This document shows, in pieces, positions 24,305 to 36,859 of a stretch of DNA of 42,538 bases. Location: IMG/VR virus record IMGVR_UViG_2537561945_000004; one strand, written 5' to 3'. Under the pieces are notes generated by a model that was not told where the DNA came from, ran no database searches, and was given only the letters and a program-made list of their open reading frames with translations. A program made the position numbers and the translations under genes. Within the stretch, counting starts at the first letter, position 1. Each line of letters begins with the position of its first letter. Origin of the DNA: a virus. Lineage: Duplodnaviria > Heunggongvirae > Uroviricota > Caudoviricetes.

Positions 24305-24597
24305 TCCTGTTCACTGGCCTCTTTGGCCATCTTCAAATACTGTTCAGGGCAATGCGCCATAACGCGCTGAAACAGTTCCAGCGCCAGATTGCGTTGCCCC
24401 TCATTAAATGCCATTGCCATAGCGTCCATCGGTGAGATGGCGGAAAACACACGGCCTTTCTCCAGCACCGACCAGACAACGCGACGCCCCTGTTCACTGC
24501 TCATGACAAAGCGAATGTCATCAATTTCACGCTGCGCCATGTCACGTTGCTTACGGGCGTTTTCTTCTTTCAGTTGATCGTCTTCGTAATCTGTCAT
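24301..24597 (-). CDS. Hypothetical small protein between portal and scaffold
   Basis: 98 aa; overlaps portal stop and scaffold start (translational coupling). Confidence 0.45.
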   Translation of the reverse strand: MTDYEDDQLKEENARKQRDMAQREIDDIRFVMSSEQGRRVVWSVLEKGRVFSAISPMDAMAMAFNEGQRNLALELFQRVMAHCPEQYLKMAKEASEQE

Positions 24598-26273
24598 TGT
24601 GATTGCCCACCCTGACCACTAACTGCATTCGCCATAGCTGACAACACACTCGGATCCGAAGTTTTAGCTTCGCTTAGCGTCTTGGCCCCCTGTGCCGCCG
24701 CCATCCCCATCGCCATCATTTGTTGCTGCTGTTGTTGCTGTGCCCGTTGCTGGCGAGCCTGCTCAACCTGTTCCTGCGGAACAATGACGGTTGGAGACAC
24801 TCCGGACATATCAGCGAATGCATCGATCGCCTGATCAACGTTGAGTTTGTCGAGAGCTTCTGGTTTCGCTTGCGCAAGTTGACCAATGAAGTTGACCGTA
24901 GACGCCAGACTGGACAGGCCGATAGACTTCTGCGCCTGAGCCATGACGGAAATGTATTCGACCTTCAGGGGCATACCTTCCATCGCGTCAGGCGGTGGCG
25001 GCAGCATGTTTTTACGCACCATCATCGAGAAAGCGCGGTCAATGAGAGGATTAAGACATTCGTCGTTCAGACGCTCCAGAACCGGCCCCAACATCAGAAG
25101 TTTTTCTTCTTTCATTTCGATCACCGCTTCAACAGGCATCGAGCGGGTATTGATGTTCTGCAACATCATGAACAGATCGACAAAGTAGGCGCTGTTAATA
25201 ATTTGGCGAGTGTCCTGAATGTCTGCTACCAGATCTGCTGTACTGGGGTTAACCAGATAAGCAGGCCTGAAACCATCCTGACCAGTAATCTGATCGATAT
25301 ACGTGATGTCGCCAGGAAGAAGGGAGGCGCGCTGATTCTTGAGGGAAGTCGGAGCAACCATCGGCGGATTGGTGGCTTTATCAATCAACTGCGACTTGCG
25401 CTTCTGGAGAAGCTGCAATGCCTTAACAGGTCCAAGCGCCAGCATACCCGGGCATGATGATCCATAAACATCTTCGCCGTTAACTTCCCAGCGCGGAGCC
25501 ATAATTGGAAACTCATCGAATCCGGACTCACGCAACAACTTGTCGTTATCGCCACCAACCTCGTAATAAACCGATTTGAATGGCTTGTTCTTGCTATCCA
25601 GCTTCGATGTATCGCGGTCAATGTTCGGGTAAACCGAATGCATCACTTCAATCCACTTCTCGTAGGTGCCGCTTTCCCACATGCTTTTTACGGATTCGCT
25701 GACGTTATTTAGCCCGAACTCCTGAACAAGCTGACGAACAGTCATAGAGAACTTGCGAAAACAGGTGTCCACACTGCCACGAGGTGAGTTAGCCAGGTAG
25801 TAACTGCCTATCGGGAATGGCATTGTGCGAATGATGTCCTCGTCATCCTCCAGCACTGCCATTGCACCAGTGCTGTATGTGCCGAGGCTTCCGTATAACT
25901 GCGGCAGAGACTGATAGAGATTCGACTTATTGAACATATCGTTCATGCGGTTCTGCACCGCCTCAAGCCACAACTTAACAGGGCCATAATCCATCATTTC
26001 AGGATCTGGCGTAGCCAGGCGAAACCACGGACGCGCGGGGCTTGTGATGCCTGACATCATGCCGCTGGCGAGAGTGCGCGCCGCCATAGTCCCGGTCGAA
26101 TCAATAATGCGTGTATTGCGTCGATCGTTACGGTTGACCTCAGAAGTCAGAAAGCGGGAACCACGCGGGTTGATGTAATCACTCAACTCGCGCCAGTGCG
26201 GCTCGAACGACTGACGCTCGCTTTCAAGTTGTGCGAACTGTTTGTTCAATCGCTCTTTAGTTGTTTCCGCCAT
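24594..26273 (-). CDS. Portal (head-to-tail connector) protein, T7 gp8-like
   Basis: 559 aa; Gln/Ala/Met-rich C-terminal tail (QQRAQQQQQQQMMAMGMAAAQGA) like T7-type connectors; GGAG RBS. Confidence 0.7.
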   Translation of the reverse strand: MAETTKERLNKQFAQLESERQSFEPHWRELSDYINPRGSRFLTSEVNRNDRRNTRIIDSTGTMAARTLASGMMSGITSPARPWFRLATPDPEMMDYGPVKLWLEAVQNRMNDMFNKSNLYQSLPQLYGSLGTYSTGAMAVLEDDEDIIRTMPFPIGSYYLANSPRGSVDTCFRKFSMTVRQLVQEFGLNNVSESVKSMWESGTYEKWIEVMHSVYPNIDRDTSKLDSKNKPFKSVYYEVGGDNDKLLRESGFDEFPIMAPRWEVNGEDVYGSSCPGMLALGPVKALQLLQKRKSQLIDKATNPPMVAPTSLKNQRASLLPGDITYIDQITGQDGFRPAYLVNPSTADLVADIQDTRQIINSAYFVDLFMMLQNINTRSMPVEAVIEMKEEKLLMLGPVLERLNDECLNPLIDRAFSMMVRKNMLPPPPDAMEGMPLKVEYISVMAQAQKSIGLSSLASTVNFIGQLAQAKPEALDKLNVDQAIDAFADMSGVSPTVIVPQEQVEQARQQRAQQQQQQQMMAMGMAAAQGAKTLSEAKTSDPSVLSAMANAVSGQGGQSQ

Positions 26274-26287
26274 TTCAATGACTCCGG

Positions 26288-26494
26288 TTACTGACCAAGT
26301 AGCGTTTTACCGCTGGTATTAGCGGTTGATGTGTCGCCCTGAGAACCGGTAAGCAGCGTAGAACTACGACCAGCAGCAGCGCGACGGCGACGAGTTTCTT
26401 CGTCGCGGGCATCAACAACGGCGGCATCCTGCTCCTGTGGTGCTGCCTGAACTTCTGGTGTTGCAGGCACTGATGGTGAGCTACCCATGCACAT
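26288..26494 (-). CDS. Possible small protein upstream of portal
   Basis: 68-aa ORF with GGAGTCATTGA RBS-like motif identical to that in front of the portal gene; weak composition, uncertain. Confidence 0.3.
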   Translation of the reverse strand: MCMGSSPSVPATPEVQAAPQEQDAAVVDARDEETRRRRAAAGRSSTLLTGSQGDTSTANTSGKTLLGQ

Positions 26495-26583
26495 ATCAAT
26501 GACTCCGTACGCAATTAAATTATTACCAATTTAACCACATATGATTTATTTATCGTAGGAGGTTGACATTTAACGCACGAATT

Positions 26584-26600
26584 ATTACCTTTCAGGTAAC
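26584..26600. promoter_or_regulatory. Operator-like palindrome ATTACC-TTTCA-GGTAAC with TTGACA (26563-26568) upstream
   Basis: Perfect TTACC-N5-GGTAA; candidate promoter/operator for the plus-strand ncRNA/tRNA/moron unit. Confidence 0.45.
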
Positions 26601-26920
26601 CAAAAAGTTCATTCCGGTTACTAACCTGACTGGCTTGTCGTTAAATTGAACAGGTGGAGTGAGCTTTTATTTTGAGCAGTACGGCGTATGGCACATGCGC
26701 CGATAGCGGTCTGGGTACGTTTAAGGGGCACCCTCCCTTGCTCGGGCAAACGAACCAGGTAGCCGGAATGTGCAAGTCGAGCGGTTTTATTCCGCGCACG
26801 GGGATTCACCATCCCGGCGATTCGGTGTGACGCCTCGGAAGAGACGAGGTACAACGATGAGAGCATTTATGGATCCGCGACAAAGTGTGGCGCCTTAACA
26901 GGCTAAGTGCTCTCAGCGTT

Positions 26921-26997
26921 GTGGCATTAGCTCAGTTGGACAGAGCAACCGCCTTCTAAGCGGTTGGTCGCAGGTTCGAATCCTGCATGCCACGCCA
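26921..26997 (+). tRNA. tRNA-Arg (anticodon UCU, reads AGA), phage-encoded
   Basis: 77 nt; acceptor stem GTGGCAT/ATGCCAC, discriminator G then CCA; anticodon arm ACCGC-CTTCTAA-GCGGT; T-loop GGTTCGAATCC; sequence differs from the E. coli argU I recall. Confidence 0.85.
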
Positions 26998-27199
26998 GAA
27001 TCACGCCTAAGGACCGTGATGCCAGAAGTTCCAAGTGCTTGGCGGTGATGGTTTCCCTTGAAGGACTATCACCGCCCTTTTTACAGCAGGACGCCATTGC
27101 GATGACTTCATGCTGTAAACCCGTACAGCCACGGAAGGCAGAACTCATTGCTTCCAGTTCGCCCGGTTCGCCGGGCATTTTTTTGCTTGATGACCGCAA

Positions 27200-27216
27200 A
27201 TTACCTTAAAGGTATA
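27200..27216. promoter_or_regulatory. Operator-like palindrome variant ATTACC-TTAAA-GGTATA overlapping RBS of 27220 gene
   Basis: One-mismatch variant (GGTAT) immediately upstream of ATG 27220. Confidence 0.4.
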
Positions 27217-27219
27217 ATC

Positions 27220-28038
27220 ATGAAAAACTTCAAGGTAATTAGCATGTTTGAATCGTTCAAAGAGCTGTTTTTATCTACTGCCAATACTGCCGTGAATCGA
27301 GCCAAAAACCCTGTGCTTGGTGCTTTTGTTATGTCCTGGTGCGCCTTCAACTGGAAATCAATTCTTTATCTATTTTTTAGCAAATCAAACATAATAGATA
27401 AAATTTCATATATCTCAGATAACAGCACATGGAAAACTGTTATGTTTTATCCATGCTTATCTGTAATTGCTATCTGCTGCCTATTACCATGGGTAAACAA
27501 TATCATTAACGTATGGCAAGCAAAGCCTCTTGATAATAATGACTCAATCGAAAATCACCTGAAGGCAAGAAAAATCCAGCGTGAAACAAGGCTGCAGAGG
27601 TTATTGGCTAAAAAAGATGTTACATACGACAAAGTTAAGACTGGCGCGGAAAAAGACATCCAAGAGATGAAAGAAGAGATTATTCGTTCAAAGAATAGTA
27701 TGGGGGAATTGACTGCCGAGTTGAAAGCTAAAGATGACGAATTGAGATCCGCCAGTGCTCAGTTAGCAGCTCTAAATCATTCATTAAAAGAGATATCGGA
27801 AACTCTTGGAAGAATGAATGAGGCATATAAGACCCTCCAAAATGATTTCGACGAATACAAACTCAAATACCCTGAAAAATCTCAAATAAAAAGCCTTGCA
27901 CTTGGCAACGGCCAAACAATTAGCAACTTTTTGGAGCAACACAACTTATCCGGATTAAAATCTGGTAAGCCAAACGTTTTTAATAACTTTGGTGTTCTAT
28001 CTGGATTATCAGGTTTCGAGGATAAAAATAAAGACTAA
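27220..28038 (+). CDS. AT-rich moron: membrane-anchored coiled-coil protein, function unknown (candidate exclusion/abortive-infection-type protein)
   Basis: ATG 27220 (track ORF starts upstream at 27148); two hydrophobic segments then long charged coiled-coil; markedly lower GC than neighbours; opposite strand to the late operon; stop overlaps terminase large stop. Confidence 0.55.
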   Translation: MKNFKVISMFESFKELFLSTANTAVNRAKNPVLGAFVMSWCAFNWKSILYLFFSKSNIIDKISYISDNSTWKTVMFYPCLSVIAICCLLPWVNNIINVWQAKPLDNNDSIENHLKARKIQRETRLQRLLAKKDVTYDKVKTGAEKDIQEMKEEIIRSKNSMGELTAELKAKDDELRSASAQLAALNHSLKEISETLGRMNEAYKTLQNDFDEYKLKYPEKSQIKSLALGNGQTISNFLEQHNLSGLKSGKPNVFNNFGVLSGLSGFEDKNKD

Positions 28039-29510
28039 GCATATGGATCGTACTCGGTAAGCGCCTTGCCTTGCTGGTTCTGCTGCCCGGGAAGTCGCAG
28101 GCGCTTTGACACCGGGAAAGCAAACGTCAGCAGTAGCGCATCGCCTTTACCAGGCGAACGCCCAAGTCGTTCTTTGATATCTTCCTTCGGTTCGATAACG
28201 ATTTTACCGTCCACGCGAACTTTGTACTCTGCCGCCGACAGATCGTCCGCTGTTTCCTGGTCATCCAGCATCCCGCCCAACCTCAGCCATGTCTTGCATG
28301 AGTTGAACATCTCCCCACGCTTGTTAAGCATCTGCGGGTCAGTGGACGCACCGCCGAACGGAACAAGTTGCCATGTACGTCCCCAGCCATCACCGATTGA
28401 CTTCAAACCGGTTCCGTAACCGAAGTCGATGAACACCGCGTCAGCCTGATACTGGTCTTCAAAGTCAGCGATACGCTTCGCCATAATCAGATCGTCGGTA
28501 GTCTTGTTGCCAGTCCACAGCACCTTACTGTGTAGCCCCTGCCGCAGGTATATCACCGCGTCATCAACGCCTGAATATGCCGGGTCAACACCGATTATCA
28601 CCGGAGCATGCGCCACCTGCGCAGCGGTCACCACCCGTTTCATTGCCTCATCAGTAAGACCGGTAGGGATAAACTGCAATTCAGATGCATCAGGGAATAT
28701 GCCGCGCACACGGATTTTAACGAAGTCGCTGTCTTCCCCGTAGTCATCAACCCATTTCTGCAACTGCTGTTTGTTAGTGCCTTCCACCGTCCGGCTGTCA
28801 ATCTGCGCAGTTTTCCAGCGGTGTTTATACTTGCGGAAACATTCACGGAATCGCCCGGTGTTACGTGTCGGGTTTCCGAACGCCACCCAGATAATCTCAG
28901 TGTCTTCGTCCGTAAGCGCACCCTCAGCAACTTCCCACACCAGATCCGCAATATTCGACGCTTCATCGAATACCACGATGATGCGTTTGCGCTCGTTGTG
29001 TAGTCCGGCGAATGCCTCTGTGTTGTGCTCAGACCAGGGGATTGCGTCAGCTCGCCACCGCTTGTCGTGCCCAGGATCATTGCTGTACATCGCGGTAGCG
29101 GTACAGGTAAACCAGTCTTTCGTGATAGCAAGGTTCGACCACTTGATAATTTCCGGCCAGGTCTTCGTTCGTAGCTGGTTGTCGGTGTTGGCGGTCACCA
29201 CGACCTTACAATCCTCGCAAGTGGACATGCCCCAGTTGATCAGCATTGAGATGAATGCGGATTTACCAATACCGTGACCAGAAGCGCGTGCCAGCATAAG
29301 CGGCTGATAGCGCGTCTCTGGATTCTGCAGGTGATCACGTATCTCTCGGAACGCATCAGCCTGCCACTGACGTGGGCCGGTGGCATGTGCCAGTTCAGTC
29401 CCCTCTTCCCCCCACGGGAACGCATAGAGGGCATAGCCAAGCGGATCGTGAGTGAACCCTGCAATATCCTCGATCAACTGCTCTTCAGGAGATAACGCTG
29501 TATCTGTCAC
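28035..29510 (-). CDS. Terminase large subunit
   Basis: 491 aa; ATPase N-terminal and nuclease C-terminal terminase architecture; overlaps terminase small stop. Confidence 0.75.
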   Translation of the reverse strand: MTDTALSPEEQLIEDIAGFTHDPLGYALYAFPWGEEGTELAHATGPRQWQADAFREIRDHLQNPETRYQPLMLARASGHGIGKSAFISMLINWGMSTCEDCKVVVTANTDNQLRTKTWPEIIKWSNLAITKDWFTCTATAMYSNDPGHDKRWRADAIPWSEHNTEAFAGLHNERKRIIVVFDEASNIADLVWEVAEGALTDEDTEIIWVAFGNPTRNTGRFRECFRKYKHRWKTAQIDSRTVEGTNKQQLQKWVDDYGEDSDFVKIRVRGIFPDASELQFIPTGLTDEAMKRVVTAAQVAHAPVIIGVDPAYSGVDDAVIYLRQGLHSKVLWTGNKTTDDLIMAKRIADFEDQYQADAVFIDFGYGTGLKSIGDGWGRTWQLVPFGGASTDPQMLNKRGEMFNSCKTWLRLGGMLDDQETADDLSAAEYKVRVDGKIVIEPKEDIKERLGRSPGKGDALLLTFAFPVSKRLRLPGQQNQQGKALTEYDPYA

Positions 29511-30100
29511 TGATTGCCATCCTGACGTTCTTTCAGTCTCTTCCTGGCTGCCGCTATGCGATCAGCAATTGTCACATTCACATTAACATCCAGACGTTCT
29601 TTGAATGCATTGACATCGACGTGCTTACCAATCAGCTCAAGGTTCTTCACCTTGTCAGGCCATTTAATTTTTTTGAGGATTGTCTCTATCGAATCCTCGT
29701 TCATGTTCATGATGGTCGATGACAGATCAAAGCCGCTAAGCGTAGTGCGCCAGATTTTCGGCCACTCGCGGATTGGCTTAAGGCTCCCATCGTCGTTGAG
29801 GATATCAATCACGTCCATCTGGTCGATCTCCACCAAGCGCATGAGAACGTAATCAGCACTGACACGCATTCGTTTGTTGCGTTCCTCCATCAGCTCGGCA
29901 ATCCGTTTCTGAATGCGTTCATCGCGCATCATGACACTGGCTTTAACTGCCGCTGTATTTGGGGAGAATCCTGCGTTAATCGCTGCCTGAGTCTGGTTTT
30001 CAGGCATTTTGATGTATGACTGGCAATAAGCCTCCTGCATTGCTGTTAGTGGCTTAAATTGCGTTGATTTGCGTTTATAGGTTTTAGGTTCAGCAGGCAT
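29507..30100 (-). CDS. Terminase small subunit
   Basis: ATG 30100 with GGTGG RBS (MPAEPKTYKRKS...); track ORF extends to 30181 across the operator and terminator, which I reject. Confidence 0.6.
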   Translation of the reverse strand: MPAEPKTYKRKSTQFKPLTAMQEAYCQSYIKMPENQTQAAINAGFSPNTAAVKASVMMRDERIQKRIAELMEERNKRMRVSADYVLMRLVEIDQMDVIDILNDDGSLKPIREWPKIWRTTLSGFDLSSTIMNMNEDSIETILKKIKWPDKVKNLELIGKHVDVNAFKERLDVNVNVTIADRIAAARKRLKERQDGNQ

Positions 30101-30120
30101 AATAACCACCCTGGTAATTG

Positions 30121-30135
30121 TTACCGTTGTGGTAA
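30121..30135. promoter_or_regulatory. Operator-like palindrome TTACC-GTTGT-GGTAA (overlapping GGTAA-TTG-TTACC at 30113-30125) in front of the late operon
   Basis: Perfect TTACC-N5-GGTAA 15-30 nt upstream of the terminase small ATG. Confidence 0.5.
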
Positions 30136-30144
30136 TAGTAACAT

Positions 30145-30172
30145 GCAAAATAAAGCCGCCATAGTTGGCGGC
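30145..30172 (-). terminator. Early-operon terminator preceding late genes (tR-prime-like)
   Basis: On the minus strand GCCGCC-aactat-GGCGGC followed by TTTATTTT. Confidence 0.55.
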
Positions 30173-30212
30173 AGTATTCAAAACACATCAAATTCATCAT
30201 GCATAATCTACT

Positions 30213-33658: not shown

Positions 33659-33673
33659 TTACCCCTTAGGTAA
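33659..33673. promoter_or_regulatory. Operator-like palindrome TTACC-CCTTA-GGTAA
   Basis: Perfect TTACC-N5-GGTAA directly upstream of the DUF1064 gene start. Confidence 0.45.
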
Positions 33674-33720
33674 TTAAAAACCACATAAGACATGAAATCA
33701 ATAAAGATTAGAACATTTTG

Positions 33721-33735
33721 TTACCCAACAGGTAA
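33721..33735. promoter_or_regulatory. Operator-like palindrome TTACC-CAACA-GGTAA
   Basis: Perfect TTACC-N5-GGTAA about 65 nt upstream of the DUF1064 gene. Confidence 0.45.
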
Positions 33736-35665: not shown

Positions 35666-35681
35666 ATTACCTTTGAGGTAC
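35666..35681. promoter_or_regulatory. Operator-like palindrome variant ATTACC-TTTGA-GGTACG
   Basis: One-mismatch variant between the Cro-like terminator and the zinc-finger gene. Confidence 0.35.
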
Positions 35682-35967: not shown

Positions 35968-36034
35968 AGCTATTGCCTGATATTTATTTCAGATAATAAA
36001 TATTCACCCATAAGGTAACAAAAATCAAGGATAG

Positions 36035-36066
36035 TTACCTGTGGGGTGCATTTACCTGTTGGGTAA
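36035..36066. promoter_or_regulatory. Immunity-region operators: TTACC-TGTGG-GGTGC (variant) and TTACC-TGTTG-GGTAA (perfect), plus half-site AGGTAAC at 36013
   Basis: Located in the 154-bp divergent intergenic region between the Cro-like and repressor-like genes. Confidence 0.55.
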
Positions 36067-36121: not shown

Positions 36122-36706
36122 ATGAAAAGTATCCAGGACGTCCGCAGGCAAAATCTCAACGACTTGATCGACCGTGAATGCAATGGTGTTCAGACGCGGA
36201 TGGCAGAAAAACTTGGAACTCAGGCAAATCTGGTAAACCGCTGGGCTCTTGGCAAGAAGGTTATCGGCGACCAGGTTGCACGAAAAATTGAAGCTGCCGC
36301 CAATAAACCCCGTAACTGGCTTGATATTGATCGTTCGCTTTCTCAGGAGGGTTTTCAGCCTGTCGGCCCGAGCGATATAGGTCAGCTGGCGGCTCACAAC
36401 CTGGAACGCTGGATGAGCGAAAGCCGCGACCTTTCAACACAGGGAAAACTTCACCGCGCATCCGGCGTCGCCCAGGTGACAATCAGCCGCCTGTTAAACA
36501 ATGAGGTCAGCGTTTCCATTTCCACCCTGGAGAATGTTGCATCCGCATTCGGGCGTCACGGCTATGAATTACTGATTCACCCGCACGACCCTGCGACCAT
36601 CAACTATGATCGCTCGCGCTACGCATTGTTACCCGAAACCGAGAAAGCAAAGATCGAAAGTTACATTGAATTTGTCATCAACCAGAACGAAAAAAACAAA
36701 CAATAA
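36122..36706 (+). CDS. Prophage repressor candidate: two HTH (XRE-like) domains, no S24 peptidase domain
   Basis: 194 aa; HTH segments MAEKLGTQANLVNRWALGKKVIGDQVARKIE and LHRASGVAQVTISRLLNNEVSVSISTLENVASAF; no Ser-Lys autocleavage module visible; divergent from Cro-like gene; followed by terminator. Confidence 0.55.
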   Translation: MKSIQDVRRQNLNDLIDRECNGVQTRMAEKLGTQANLVNRWALGKKVIGDQVARKIEAAANKPRNWLDIDRSLSQEGFQPVGPSDIGQLAAHNLERWMSESRDLSTQGKLHRASGVAQVTISRLLNNEVSVSISTLENVASAFGRHGYELLIHPHDPATINYDRSRYALLPETEKAKIESYIEFVINQNEKNKQ

Positions 36707-36762: not shown

Positions 36763-36779
36763 ATTACCTAACGGGTAAT
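36763..36779. promoter_or_regulatory. Operator-like palindrome ATTACC-TAACG-GGTAAT
   Basis: Perfect 17-bp palindrome just upstream of the early-left promoter. Confidence 0.5.
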
Positions 36780-36797: not shown

Positions 36798-36840
36798 TTG
36801 ACATCAAACCATATACGCATAATTATTACCTCAACGGTAA
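36798..36840 (+). promoter_or_regulatory. Early-left promoter (-35 TTGACA 36798-36803, -10 AATTAT/TAATTA about 36820-36826) with overlapping operator TTACC-TCAAC-GGTAA (36826-36840)
   Basis: Consensus -35, 16-17 bp spacer, AT-rich -10, operator palindrome at -10/+1, followed by GAGG RBS and ATG 36860. Confidence 0.5.
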
Positions 36841-36859
36841 CAGACCGAGGTAACAAGTT

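Follow-up and report, generated by a model that had tools for sequence, protein, structure and literature searches.

A tRNA-Arg gene, a structured leader RNA and a predicted membrane-anchored coiled-coil protein in a variable, putatively repressor-gated slot of an epsilon15/phiV10-like prophage

The DNA analysed here (IMG/VR record IMGVR_UViG_2537561945_000004, 42,538 nucleotides (nt), referred to as the window) represents a prophage that belongs to the epsilon15/phiV10 group (genus Uetakevirus) and is integrated beside guaA in E. coli. On its + strand, at the junction between the TerL gene and the gp3 and portal genes, lies a unit that is composed, in this order, of a promoter with an operator (P1/O1), a structured leader RNA, the hairpin H6, a tRNA-Arg(UCU) gene, two intrinsic terminators, a second promoter with an operator (P2/O2) and an open reading frame (ORF) for a cargo protein. 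The unit is thus located antisense inside the late operon, as a preliminary description of this DNA had stated, its neighbours on the - strand being the genes for TerS (29507-30181), TerL (28035-29510, 54% GC), a gp3-like protein of 68 amino acids (aa; 26288-26494) and the portal protein (24594-26273). The TAA stop codon of the ORF (28036-28038, +) overlaps the stop codon of TerL (28035-28037, -), also in agreement with that description. A 2-kb query is 100% identical in strains BE311, F41, K99S and EC24.26, and the whole segment is found in 38 of 5426 complete E. coli genomes and parts of it in 770. The best phage matches, i.e. phiv142-3, phiV10, ZX5 and TL-2011b, align over no more than 54-58% of the segment: these phages have the flanks and the tRNA region in common with it, but not the ORF.

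The cargo ORF is a real, conserved and horizontally mobile gene with its own promoter and a foreign base composition. It matches PHROG 4780 (E = 3e-137), and a HMMER search against 1.84 billion representatives yielded 299 conserved clusters (50% identity) at E <= 1e-10, which rules out a spurious ORF. PGAP annotates a protein of 272 aa starting at 27220, the length also given in the preliminary description, but the ATG at 27244, i.e. Met9 of this longer version, is the likely start, resulting in a protein of 264 aa (27244-28038, +). This start is favoured because the PHROG 4780 alignment opens at residue 9, because the closest homologues comprise 264 aa, because relatives have no in-frame ATG upstream of the equivalent Met, and because the ATG at 27220 sits 1 nt past the -10 hexamer of a conserved promoter. 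Apart from its length, the protein was described correctly: the ORF has a low GC content (36.9% vs. 49.3% for the window and 54% for TerL) and encodes two hydrophobic segments, the first of which is weak, and long helices. In the numbering of the 264-aa protein the hydrophobic segments comprise residues 23-46 (Kyte-Doolittle value ~1.2) and residues 66-92 (strong, up to 2.15), and 11 Lys/Arg residues are located within the 43 residues that follow the second segment, so that hydropathy and charge distribution fit a putative membrane hairpin. An AlphaFold2 model based on 45 homologues is all-helical, with helices at residues 100-130 and 134-208, the latter mostly having a predicted local distance difference test (pLDDT) score of ~90.

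The protein shows no clear homology to any characterised family in the Pfam, NCBIfam, PADLOC, PDB and Foldseek searches beyond coiled coils. A Foldseek search of the AlphaFold2 model against the PDB gave nothing below E = 3, and the best match of the family profile in a PDB sequence search had an E value of 0.095, with only coiled coils being found. Scans of the ORF with Pfam and NCBIfam models gave sub-threshold coiled-coil matches only, and PF13876, PF11195 and PF24729 were not matched by the 264-aa protein in the Pfam scan. In PADLOC-DB v2 the best match was DndD (E = 2e-5), where only the coiled-coil residues 107-260 align with the coiled coil of the model; the rest are SMC-like coiled coils. 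All source names of the 177 homologues that were found read "hypothetical". Most of the family members listed are 200-400 aa long, and a long coiled coil follows their common signature ER.KNP..GAF..SW..FNWK; ten distant members contain no Pfam domain. Homologues in a word-indexed search came from Enterobacteriaceae only; within this family of bacteria residues 1-160 have a mean pairwise identity of 78%, as opposed to 19% for residues 161-264.

The promoter/operator that had been suggested at 26563-26600 is real in terms of sequence. P1 (+ strand), a promoter of the sigma-70 type, consists of the -35 element TTGACA (26563-26568), a spacer of 17 nt and the -10 element TACCTT (26586-26591), the latter being overlapped by O1, TTACCTTTCAGGTAA (26585-26599), which is a perfect palindrome. 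Searching the window with the pattern TTACCTNNNAGGTAA and allowing up to two mismatches we found 18 sites of the palindrome class TTACC-N5-GGTAA, whereas 0.88 are expected and none of 100 shuffles reached 18. P2 (27190-27218, +) reads ATGACC, 17 nt, TATAAT and matches 10 of 12 consensus positions. Its operator O2, TTACCTTAAAGGTAT (27201-27215), has one mismatch in the palindrome and overlaps both the spacer and the -10 element. Both elements are conserved: TTGAC and ATTACCTTT..GGTAA of P1/O1 are invariant in nine diverse phages of E. coli, Klebsiella and Salmonella, TTACC-N5-GGTA occurs at the identical offset in 49 of the 49 complete slots described below, and the P2 layout TGRTGAC-N10-TTACCTTAAAGGTAnAAT is kept upstream of homologues of the ORF in nine contexts. 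Moreover, GenBank entry AY150271 (epsilon15) labels the homologous site in the same intergenic region as repressor-binding.

The same palindromes flank a gene for a helix-turn-helix (HTH) repressor (~36122-36706), which has operator copies on both sides. The copies at 36764-36778 and 36825-36841 bracket a PL-like promoter (TTGACA-17-AATTAT), the -10 end of which is directly overlapped by ATTACCTCAACGGTAAC, and the copies at 36004-36018 and 36052-36066 lie over and upstream of the promoter of a cro-like gene. Two further operator palindromes (6563 and 6656) precede the isrK and C4 RNAs and a BRO-N antirepressor-like gene, two copies are located between the replication genes and the nin-like genes, and one is found upstream of TerS. 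A site for a host regulator was rejected, as the palindrome does not fit the consensus sequences of CRP, FNR, LexA, NarL or Fis. An operator that covers the -10 element is the classical layout of repression. Because the predicted repressor operator overlaps the -10 element of both P1 and P2, the unit is probably silent in the lysogen and switched on together with the lytic genes upon infection or induction. Operator-like palindromes outside the immunity region were also observed at 5443-5457, 30121-30135, 33659-33735 and 35667-35681, one of these being located just upstream of the start of a short form of TerS, and the repressor may gate several dispersed promoters directly, possibly including that of the late operon. 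As for the RNAs mentioned above, isrK (67.7 bits) and the C4 antisense RNA (63.6 bits) are arranged in tandem at 6707-6891 (+) and are followed by the BRO-N antirepressor-like gene, which is frameshifted, i.e. a P1/P7-type immI module is present in a podovirus.

The position of the ORF is a slot with variable cargo. Related loci were gathered by means of a 19-mer from the leader, and 49 loci that contain both gp3 and the end of TerL were compared. The gp3-TerL interval ranges from 704 to 1904 bp in these slots. Members of the PF13876 family, which is also found in epsilon15 and phiV10, occupy 14 slots, the family of the 264-aa protein occupies 12, a family of ~140 aa without known domain (cluster C2, e.g. 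in L133) 10, and Tad2-like PF11195 proteins nine; a PF24729 Acb2/Tad1 hairpin protein and a DUF551 protein were found once each, and the remainder of the slots contains several unrelated small ORFs. PF13876 corresponds to the Acb4 family of anti-CBASS sponges and PF11195 to Tad2 (10.1101/2024.12.30.630793; 10.1101/2025.07.12.664507). The sponge genes begin straight after the T-run of terminator 2 (...GGGCATTTTTTTAAGGTGAAAATCATG) and have no promoter of their own, and other cargo outside the family of the 264-aa protein likewise starts directly after terminator 2. Having no own promoter, such cargo depends on P1. Among the less common cargo are a repeat-rich protein of 115 aa (L016/L055, TL-2011b) and a predicted lipoprotein of 125 aa with a lipobox-like LCMAGC motif (L014, SPN1S), neither of which has a known domain. 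By their position, the undescribed cargo genes are candidates for new counter-defence or exclusion genes. In a literature search the accession of the 264-aa protein, PHROG 4780 and an anti-defence locus of Uetakeviruses were not mentioned.

Uetakeviruses of E. coli, Salmonella and Klebsiella carry the family of the 264-aa protein in this slot. Most sister phages have no copy, and phiV10, phiv142-3 and epsilon15 all lack the ORF. Homologues are also present in lambdoid prophages of Klebsiella and Citrobacter, where they are antisense to their neighbours, and in prophage remnants of Cronobacter and Atlantibacter, the Atlantibacter remnant being located at guaA; distant members adjoin a ParA-like gene in a phage or phage-plasmid. 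In five of five contexts outside the Uetakevirus slot (Klebsiella, Citrobacter and three distant ones) the homologue is a single gene, opposite in strand to its phage or plasmid neighbours. Enterobacterial copies outside the slot all keep pieces of terminator 2 and P2 with the palindrome, which is decayed in the most diverged copy (Cronobacter). The fact that terminator 2 and P2 are still attached to these copies implies that the Uetakevirus slot is the home of the module and that the module escaped from there. The Klebsiella lambdoid prophage contains no other copy of the palindrome, and elsewhere the module would no longer be repressed. In the Citrobacter lambdoid prophage (L021, 1222-4207) genes for an AAA_15/SMC_N ATPase of 602 aa and a protein of 397 aa, together a defence-like pair, lie directly upstream of the homologue.

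Downstream of P1 a GC-rich structured non-coding stretch had been noted, and covariation confirms it as a conserved structured leader RNA (26651-26882, +). The leader contains helices H1 (26682-26690/26694-26702), H2 (26706-26713/26756-26763), which encloses a variable insert, H4 (26801-26805/26811-26815) and H5 (26833-26837/26845-26849) as well as a loop-to-downstream pseudoknot formed by CACC (26807-26810) and GGUG (26824-26827). These four hand-drawn helices and the pseudoknot were tested with a set of 54 sequences, non-redundant at 94% identity. In this set 96.4% of the cells are paired and compensatory changes occur at 14 of the 29 pairs; 104 cells show a double change, vs. 32 +/- 4.6 in shuffles (0 of 500 reaching the observed value) and 3-20 with slid partners. 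For the pseudoknot, covariation stems from only two sequences, in which CACC is changed to AACC together with a change of GGUG to GGUU. Although indels are numerous, the leader has been kept in phages of E. coli, Salmonella and Klebsiella, and the lack of variation in a 19-mer at the centre of the alignment is an artefact, as the sequences were collected by means of that 19-mer. The frequent G-U pairs favour the + strand, and non-triplet indels among relatives together with this G-U-rich covariation rule out that the region encodes a protein on the - strand. RNAalifold suggests an alternative pairing of GCACAU (26691-26696) with AUGUGC (26768-26773), both strands of which are invariant, i.e. 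there is no covariation either way.

A covariance model of the leader detects a single copy in the window (26651-26882, 162 bits), copies with 185-189 bits in L013 and L014 and a partial copy with 51 bits in epsilon15. It finds no copy in the non-Uetakevirus contexts of the 264-aa protein, making the leader specific to the TerL/gp3 slot of Uetakevirus-like phages. The leader has no match in Rfam 15 at E <= 10, and a known riboswitch or ribozyme was discarded on these grounds. A cmscan of 26450-27260 gave, besides the tRNA, only RyhB (16.5 bits), anti-hemB (13.5 bits) and ceN46 (12.7 bits), none of which reaches its gathering score, and two models of chloroplast untranslated regions, Plastid-ycf2 and Plastid-psbl-rps4, that hit the tRNA on its opposite strand. 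Relevant Rfam matches were likewise absent from seven related loci, and the Pas small RNA (sRNA) described in a preprint is unrelated. Candidate roles of the leader are a stable processed RNA, a signal for processing or stability, a regulator of read-through into the cargo and a cis-antisense partner of the late transcript. The leader is followed by hairpin H6 (CAACGAUGAGAGCA ... UGCUCUCAGCGUUG; 26852-26865 with 26908-26921, +), which was identified in the minimum free energy fold and closes exactly at the 5' end of the tRNA. At least eight covarying strand variants of H6 exist among relatives, and a hairpin of this type precedes every tRNA or tRNA-like unit, tandem units included.

The tRNA-Arg(UCU) is genuine. 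ARAGORN places it at 26921-26997 (+, anticodon tct) as the only tRNA in the window, the Rfam model RF00005 matches with 73.3 bits (E = 2.6e-14, gathering score 29), and PGAP annotates it in strain BE311. The tRNA encodes its own 3' CCA, has the anticodon loop CUUCUAA and carries A20 (in the D-loop GGA), C35 and U36, i.e. the identity elements recognised by ArgRS. It is present in phiV10, phiv142-3, BUCT711 and EC.W1-9 and absent from epsilon15. In 43 coding sequences (CDS) of the prophage AGA accounts for 6.84 per 1000 codons and for 11% of the Arg codons, whereas four flanking host genes do not use it; AGA reaches ~2 per 1000 on average in E. coli, so that the prophage uses AGA about three times as often. 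AGA codons are concentrated in tail/ejection genes and early genes and are absent from the capsid, portal and TerL genes. As AGA is enriched in the phage, a role in AGA decoding, which had been suggested earlier, is plausible, and codon supply would suffice to explain the tRNA. The tRNA and the ORF assort independently among relatives, in that phiV10 combines the tRNA with a gene of the Acb4 family, the ORF occurs in Salmonella prophages that lack the tRNA, and epsilon15 has neither; they thus do not form a functional pair.

In 129 leader loci the sequence after H6 was sorted by a crude motif test of the 5' end only, according to which 38 loci contain tRNA-Arg, 65 contain one to three units starting with GUUGUGGU and 26 contain neither. 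Many of the tRNA-like units that were inspected end with ...CCACCACA(A/C)C(C)A, and the units have the form GUGGUG...CCACCAC-A-(A/C)C(C)A (e.g. L058, L029, L015, L017, L043, L083, L126 and L133). ARAGORN called no tRNA in 19 loci with tRNA-like units, and Rfam was also silent on such units. In three of five units that were folded, an acceptor-like bracket is accompanied by a D-like arm and by a T-arm-like hairpin, the loop of which is the canonical UUCGAUU in one case.

Between the tRNA and P2 lies a 3' non-coding module (26999-27186, +), recognised by a terminator scan and a fold z-score of -3.3. It comprises a hairpin (26999-27021), intrinsic terminator 1 (stem 27041-27076 plus T-run), conserved hairpins (27080-27160) and intrinsic terminator 2 (GCCCGGTTCGCCGGGC, 27161-27176, plus T7). 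The module is kept from E. coli to Salmonella phages, including epsilon15, which has no tRNA, and it was co-transferred with the ORF into other (lambdoid) prophage types. The conserved part between the terminators (27080-27186, +), which ends with the stem and T7 of terminator 2, resembles an sRNA, for which we saw no separate promoter. Being unidirectional, the + strand terminators would not halt late transcription of the - strand. On the 3' side of the ORF the terminator scan found no own + strand terminator, the sole candidate being a weak 5-bp hairpin inside TerL (28156-28172), and transcripts from P2 meet no terminator before they run into TerL in antisense. As the + strand terminators work one way and none separates P2 transcripts from TerL, convergent transcription across 26.5-28.1 kb is expected during lytic growth.

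Based on these findings we lean, with about even confidence, towards the reading that the unit is a repressor-gated variable accessory slot for counter-defence or competition genes in an epsilon15/phiV10-like temperate podovirus. The prophage repressor would shut P1 and P2 in the lysogen, and upon infection or induction the unit would fire along with the early and lytic promoters. The tRNA-Arg would then boost the decoding of AGA codons, and the cargo position would hold phage-side conflict genes, which in sister phages would be the nucleotide-signal sponges Acb4, Tad2 and Acb2/Tad1. The 264-aa protein may insert into the inner membrane as a helical hairpin with cytoplasmic N- and C-termini, may oligomerise via its long coiled coil and, during lytic growth, might block either a membrane-acting host immune effector or, comparable to T4 Imm, the entry of DNA from competing phages. 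The 160 conserved N-terminal residues would be the working part, and the hypervariable C-terminus may confer specificity or merely mediate oligomerisation. In other prophages or remnants that lack the cognate repressor, the module would be expressed constitutively. We propose such a membrane block, by analogy and with low confidence, because it would reconcile most of the evidence from operators and slot with the retention of the gene in decayed prophages.

Several points weigh against this reading. The only argument for repression via O1 and O2 is their position, the -10 element of P1 (TACCTT) is weak, and the repressor-site annotation of epsilon15 is presumably a prediction and not a footprint. 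The membrane topology of the 264-aa protein is uncertain, with the first transmembrane segment being only weakly hydrophobic and the N-terminal part of the model being poor (pLDDT ~60; mean pLDDT 66, predicted template modelling (pTM) score 0.24). As a membrane protein it would be unlike the soluble sponges that share the slot, and it has traits of a moron, i.e. an own promoter, a low GC content and an antisense insertion. Moreover, the gene is retained in chromosomal prophage remnants, with one Cronobacter homologue occurring on 91 contigs, and one copy adjoins the AAA_15/SMC_N ATPase pair in the Citrobacter prophage. Such retention is accounted for more readily by a defence or exclusion function that benefits the host than by counter-defence. 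Finally, the host baseline for AGA usage consists of four genes and the general codon usage of E. coli.

It is therefore worth weighing the reading of the preliminary description, in which the gene is a classical moron, i.e. the lysogen produces the 264-aa protein and is protected by it, through either superinfection exclusion at the inner membrane or abortive infection. Morons were described by Hendrix and colleagues, e.g. gp15 of the lambdoid phage HK97 and bor and lom of phage lambda, and their hallmark is expression from the repressed prophage. Like lambdoid morons the ORF is additional to the conserved late genes on either side of it, has a conserved promoter of its own and a deviant base composition, and is missing from close relatives. 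Other prophage types also contain it, oriented against the neighbouring genes, it has survived in decayed prophages and is widespread in Cronobacter, and the Citrobacter copy adjoins the defence-like pair. Many sensor/effector immune proteins likewise combine a conserved N-terminal module with a hypervariable C-terminus. Unlike morons, however, it has no terminator of its own, and the repressor operator over the -10 element of both home-slot promoters makes expression in the lysogen doubtful. Moreover, PADLOC, Pfam and NCBIfam yielded no defence family beyond coiled-coil regions, and the slot is otherwise filled with counter-defence genes. Operator control and a sponge-filled slot suggest a phage-side role in the lytic phase and not abortive infection of the host. 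The classical moron view thus has only partial support, and the idea of exclusion keeps some probability through the persistence in remnants and the ATPase pair. On balance we regard this explanation as possible, but clearly less probable than a repressor-gated accessory slot.

Two further explanations concern individual parts of the unit. The tRNA and the tRNA-like RNAs might mainly serve counter-defence, as substitutes or decoys against anticodon nucleases or toxins that modify the acceptor end. The tRNA is located in a slot dedicated to counter-defence cargo, and by the crude 5' motif test it is replaced in 65 of 129 loci by tRNA-like units, which could not decode AGA. That a phage tRNA can rescue from tRNA-targeting defence has a reported precedent in T5 tRNA-Tyr, which acts against a retron (10.1101/2023.03.15.532788). 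AGA enrichment, however, suffices as an ordinary explanation, and the tRNA-like units could be decayed genes. We know of no defence system that targets tRNA-Arg(UCU), and the anticodon loop CUUCUAA, which we take to be the same as in host argU, shows no evident escape change, so that we consider a principal role in counter-defence unlikely. Still less probable in our view is that the 264-aa protein is no conflict protein at all but a factor for host takeover or lysis, acting on cell division, the envelope or lysis timing. The combination of a membrane anchor and a long coiled coil resembles, in outline, i-spanins and scaffolds at the division site, and repressor control would suit any lytic function. 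A spanin was nevertheless rejected: although i-spanins (Rz-like) share the predicted transmembrane segment and coiled coil, the gene is located between TerL and portal, outside the lysis cassette, and no embedded or adjacent + strand ORF of at least 40 aa is available as an o-spanin partner. The absence from most sister phages implies that the gene is dispensable, and its patchy, swappable distribution is typical of conflict genes.

A more far-reaching version of the repressor-gated slot would regard the whole unit as a mixed RNA/protein counter-defence cassette that contains RNA evasion devices and a new class of membrane inhibitors. In such a cassette the leader and the tRNA or tRNA-like units would be decoys or substitutes for tRNAs that are hit by nucleases or acceptor-end-modifying toxins, or, alternatively, the leader would respond to a signal and thereby control whether transcription reads through into the sponge genes, and the 264-aa protein would be the first of a new class of inhibitors that act at the membrane against immune effectors. 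We consider this improbable and mention it as a speculation.

Elements of the proposed repressor-gated slot have parallels in known systems. The counter-defence loci for the sponges Acb4 (PF13876), Tad2 (PF11195) and Acb2/Tad1 in sister Uetakeviruses use the same slot and a shared upstream promoter and have swappable cargo, whereas the cargo in the window is a predicted membrane-anchored coiled-coil protein that has no similarity to the sponges and an additional promoter of its own. Inner-membrane superinfection-exclusion proteins include T4 Imm, which is made in lytic growth, P22 SieA and HK97 gp15. Like these, the 264-aa protein is a small, predicted phage membrane protein encoded outside the core modules, and its synthesis would, as for T4 Imm, fall early in lytic growth; however, we found no relationship in sequence or fold to any of the three, and its long, predicted cytoplasmic coiled coil has no counterpart in them. 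In the immunity system of phages P1 and P7, C1 operators are scattered over many operons and the C4 antisense RNA controls an antirepressor. Similarly, the operators in the window are dispersed beyond the immunity region and overlap promoters of an accessory unit, and C4 and isrK lie upstream of a BRO-N antirepressor-like gene, but the operator is symmetric (TTACC-N5-GGTAA) and the repressor is a lambda-like HTH protein encoded beside a cro-like gene and not C1. Phage tRNAs that are co-transcribed with stable RNAs are known from the T4 tRNA cluster with its species 1 and 2 RNAs and from the T5 tRNAs. Likewise, a tRNA for a codon rare in the host is predicted here to be co-transcribed with structured RNAs; in contrast to T4 and T5, it is a single tRNA in a temperate podovirus, is accompanied by a covarying leader outside Rfam and swaps with tRNA-like units in relatives.

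Should the proposed regulation prove correct, the late operon of a temperate podovirus would contain a slot that is reserved for conflict genes and gated by the repressor, and the contents of this slot can be mined, as it holds at least three known sponge families and several undescribed small proteins. The ~140-aa family and the family with ~300 clusters would then be prioritised candidates for counter-defence or exclusion genes in Enterobacteriaceae, including E. coli, Salmonella and Klebsiella. Under the same premise, an AT-rich antisense gene with its own promoter is not automatically a moron expressed in lysogeny, since the placement of operators changes the prediction. The leader is a well-supported structured RNA outside Rfam that occurs together with tRNA-like units and may represent a new class of phage RNAs. 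As a separate observation, a related IMG/VR contig (L107) carries an int-alpA RNA (RF02996) at 916-980 (-), which scores 44 bits and thus lies above the gathering score.

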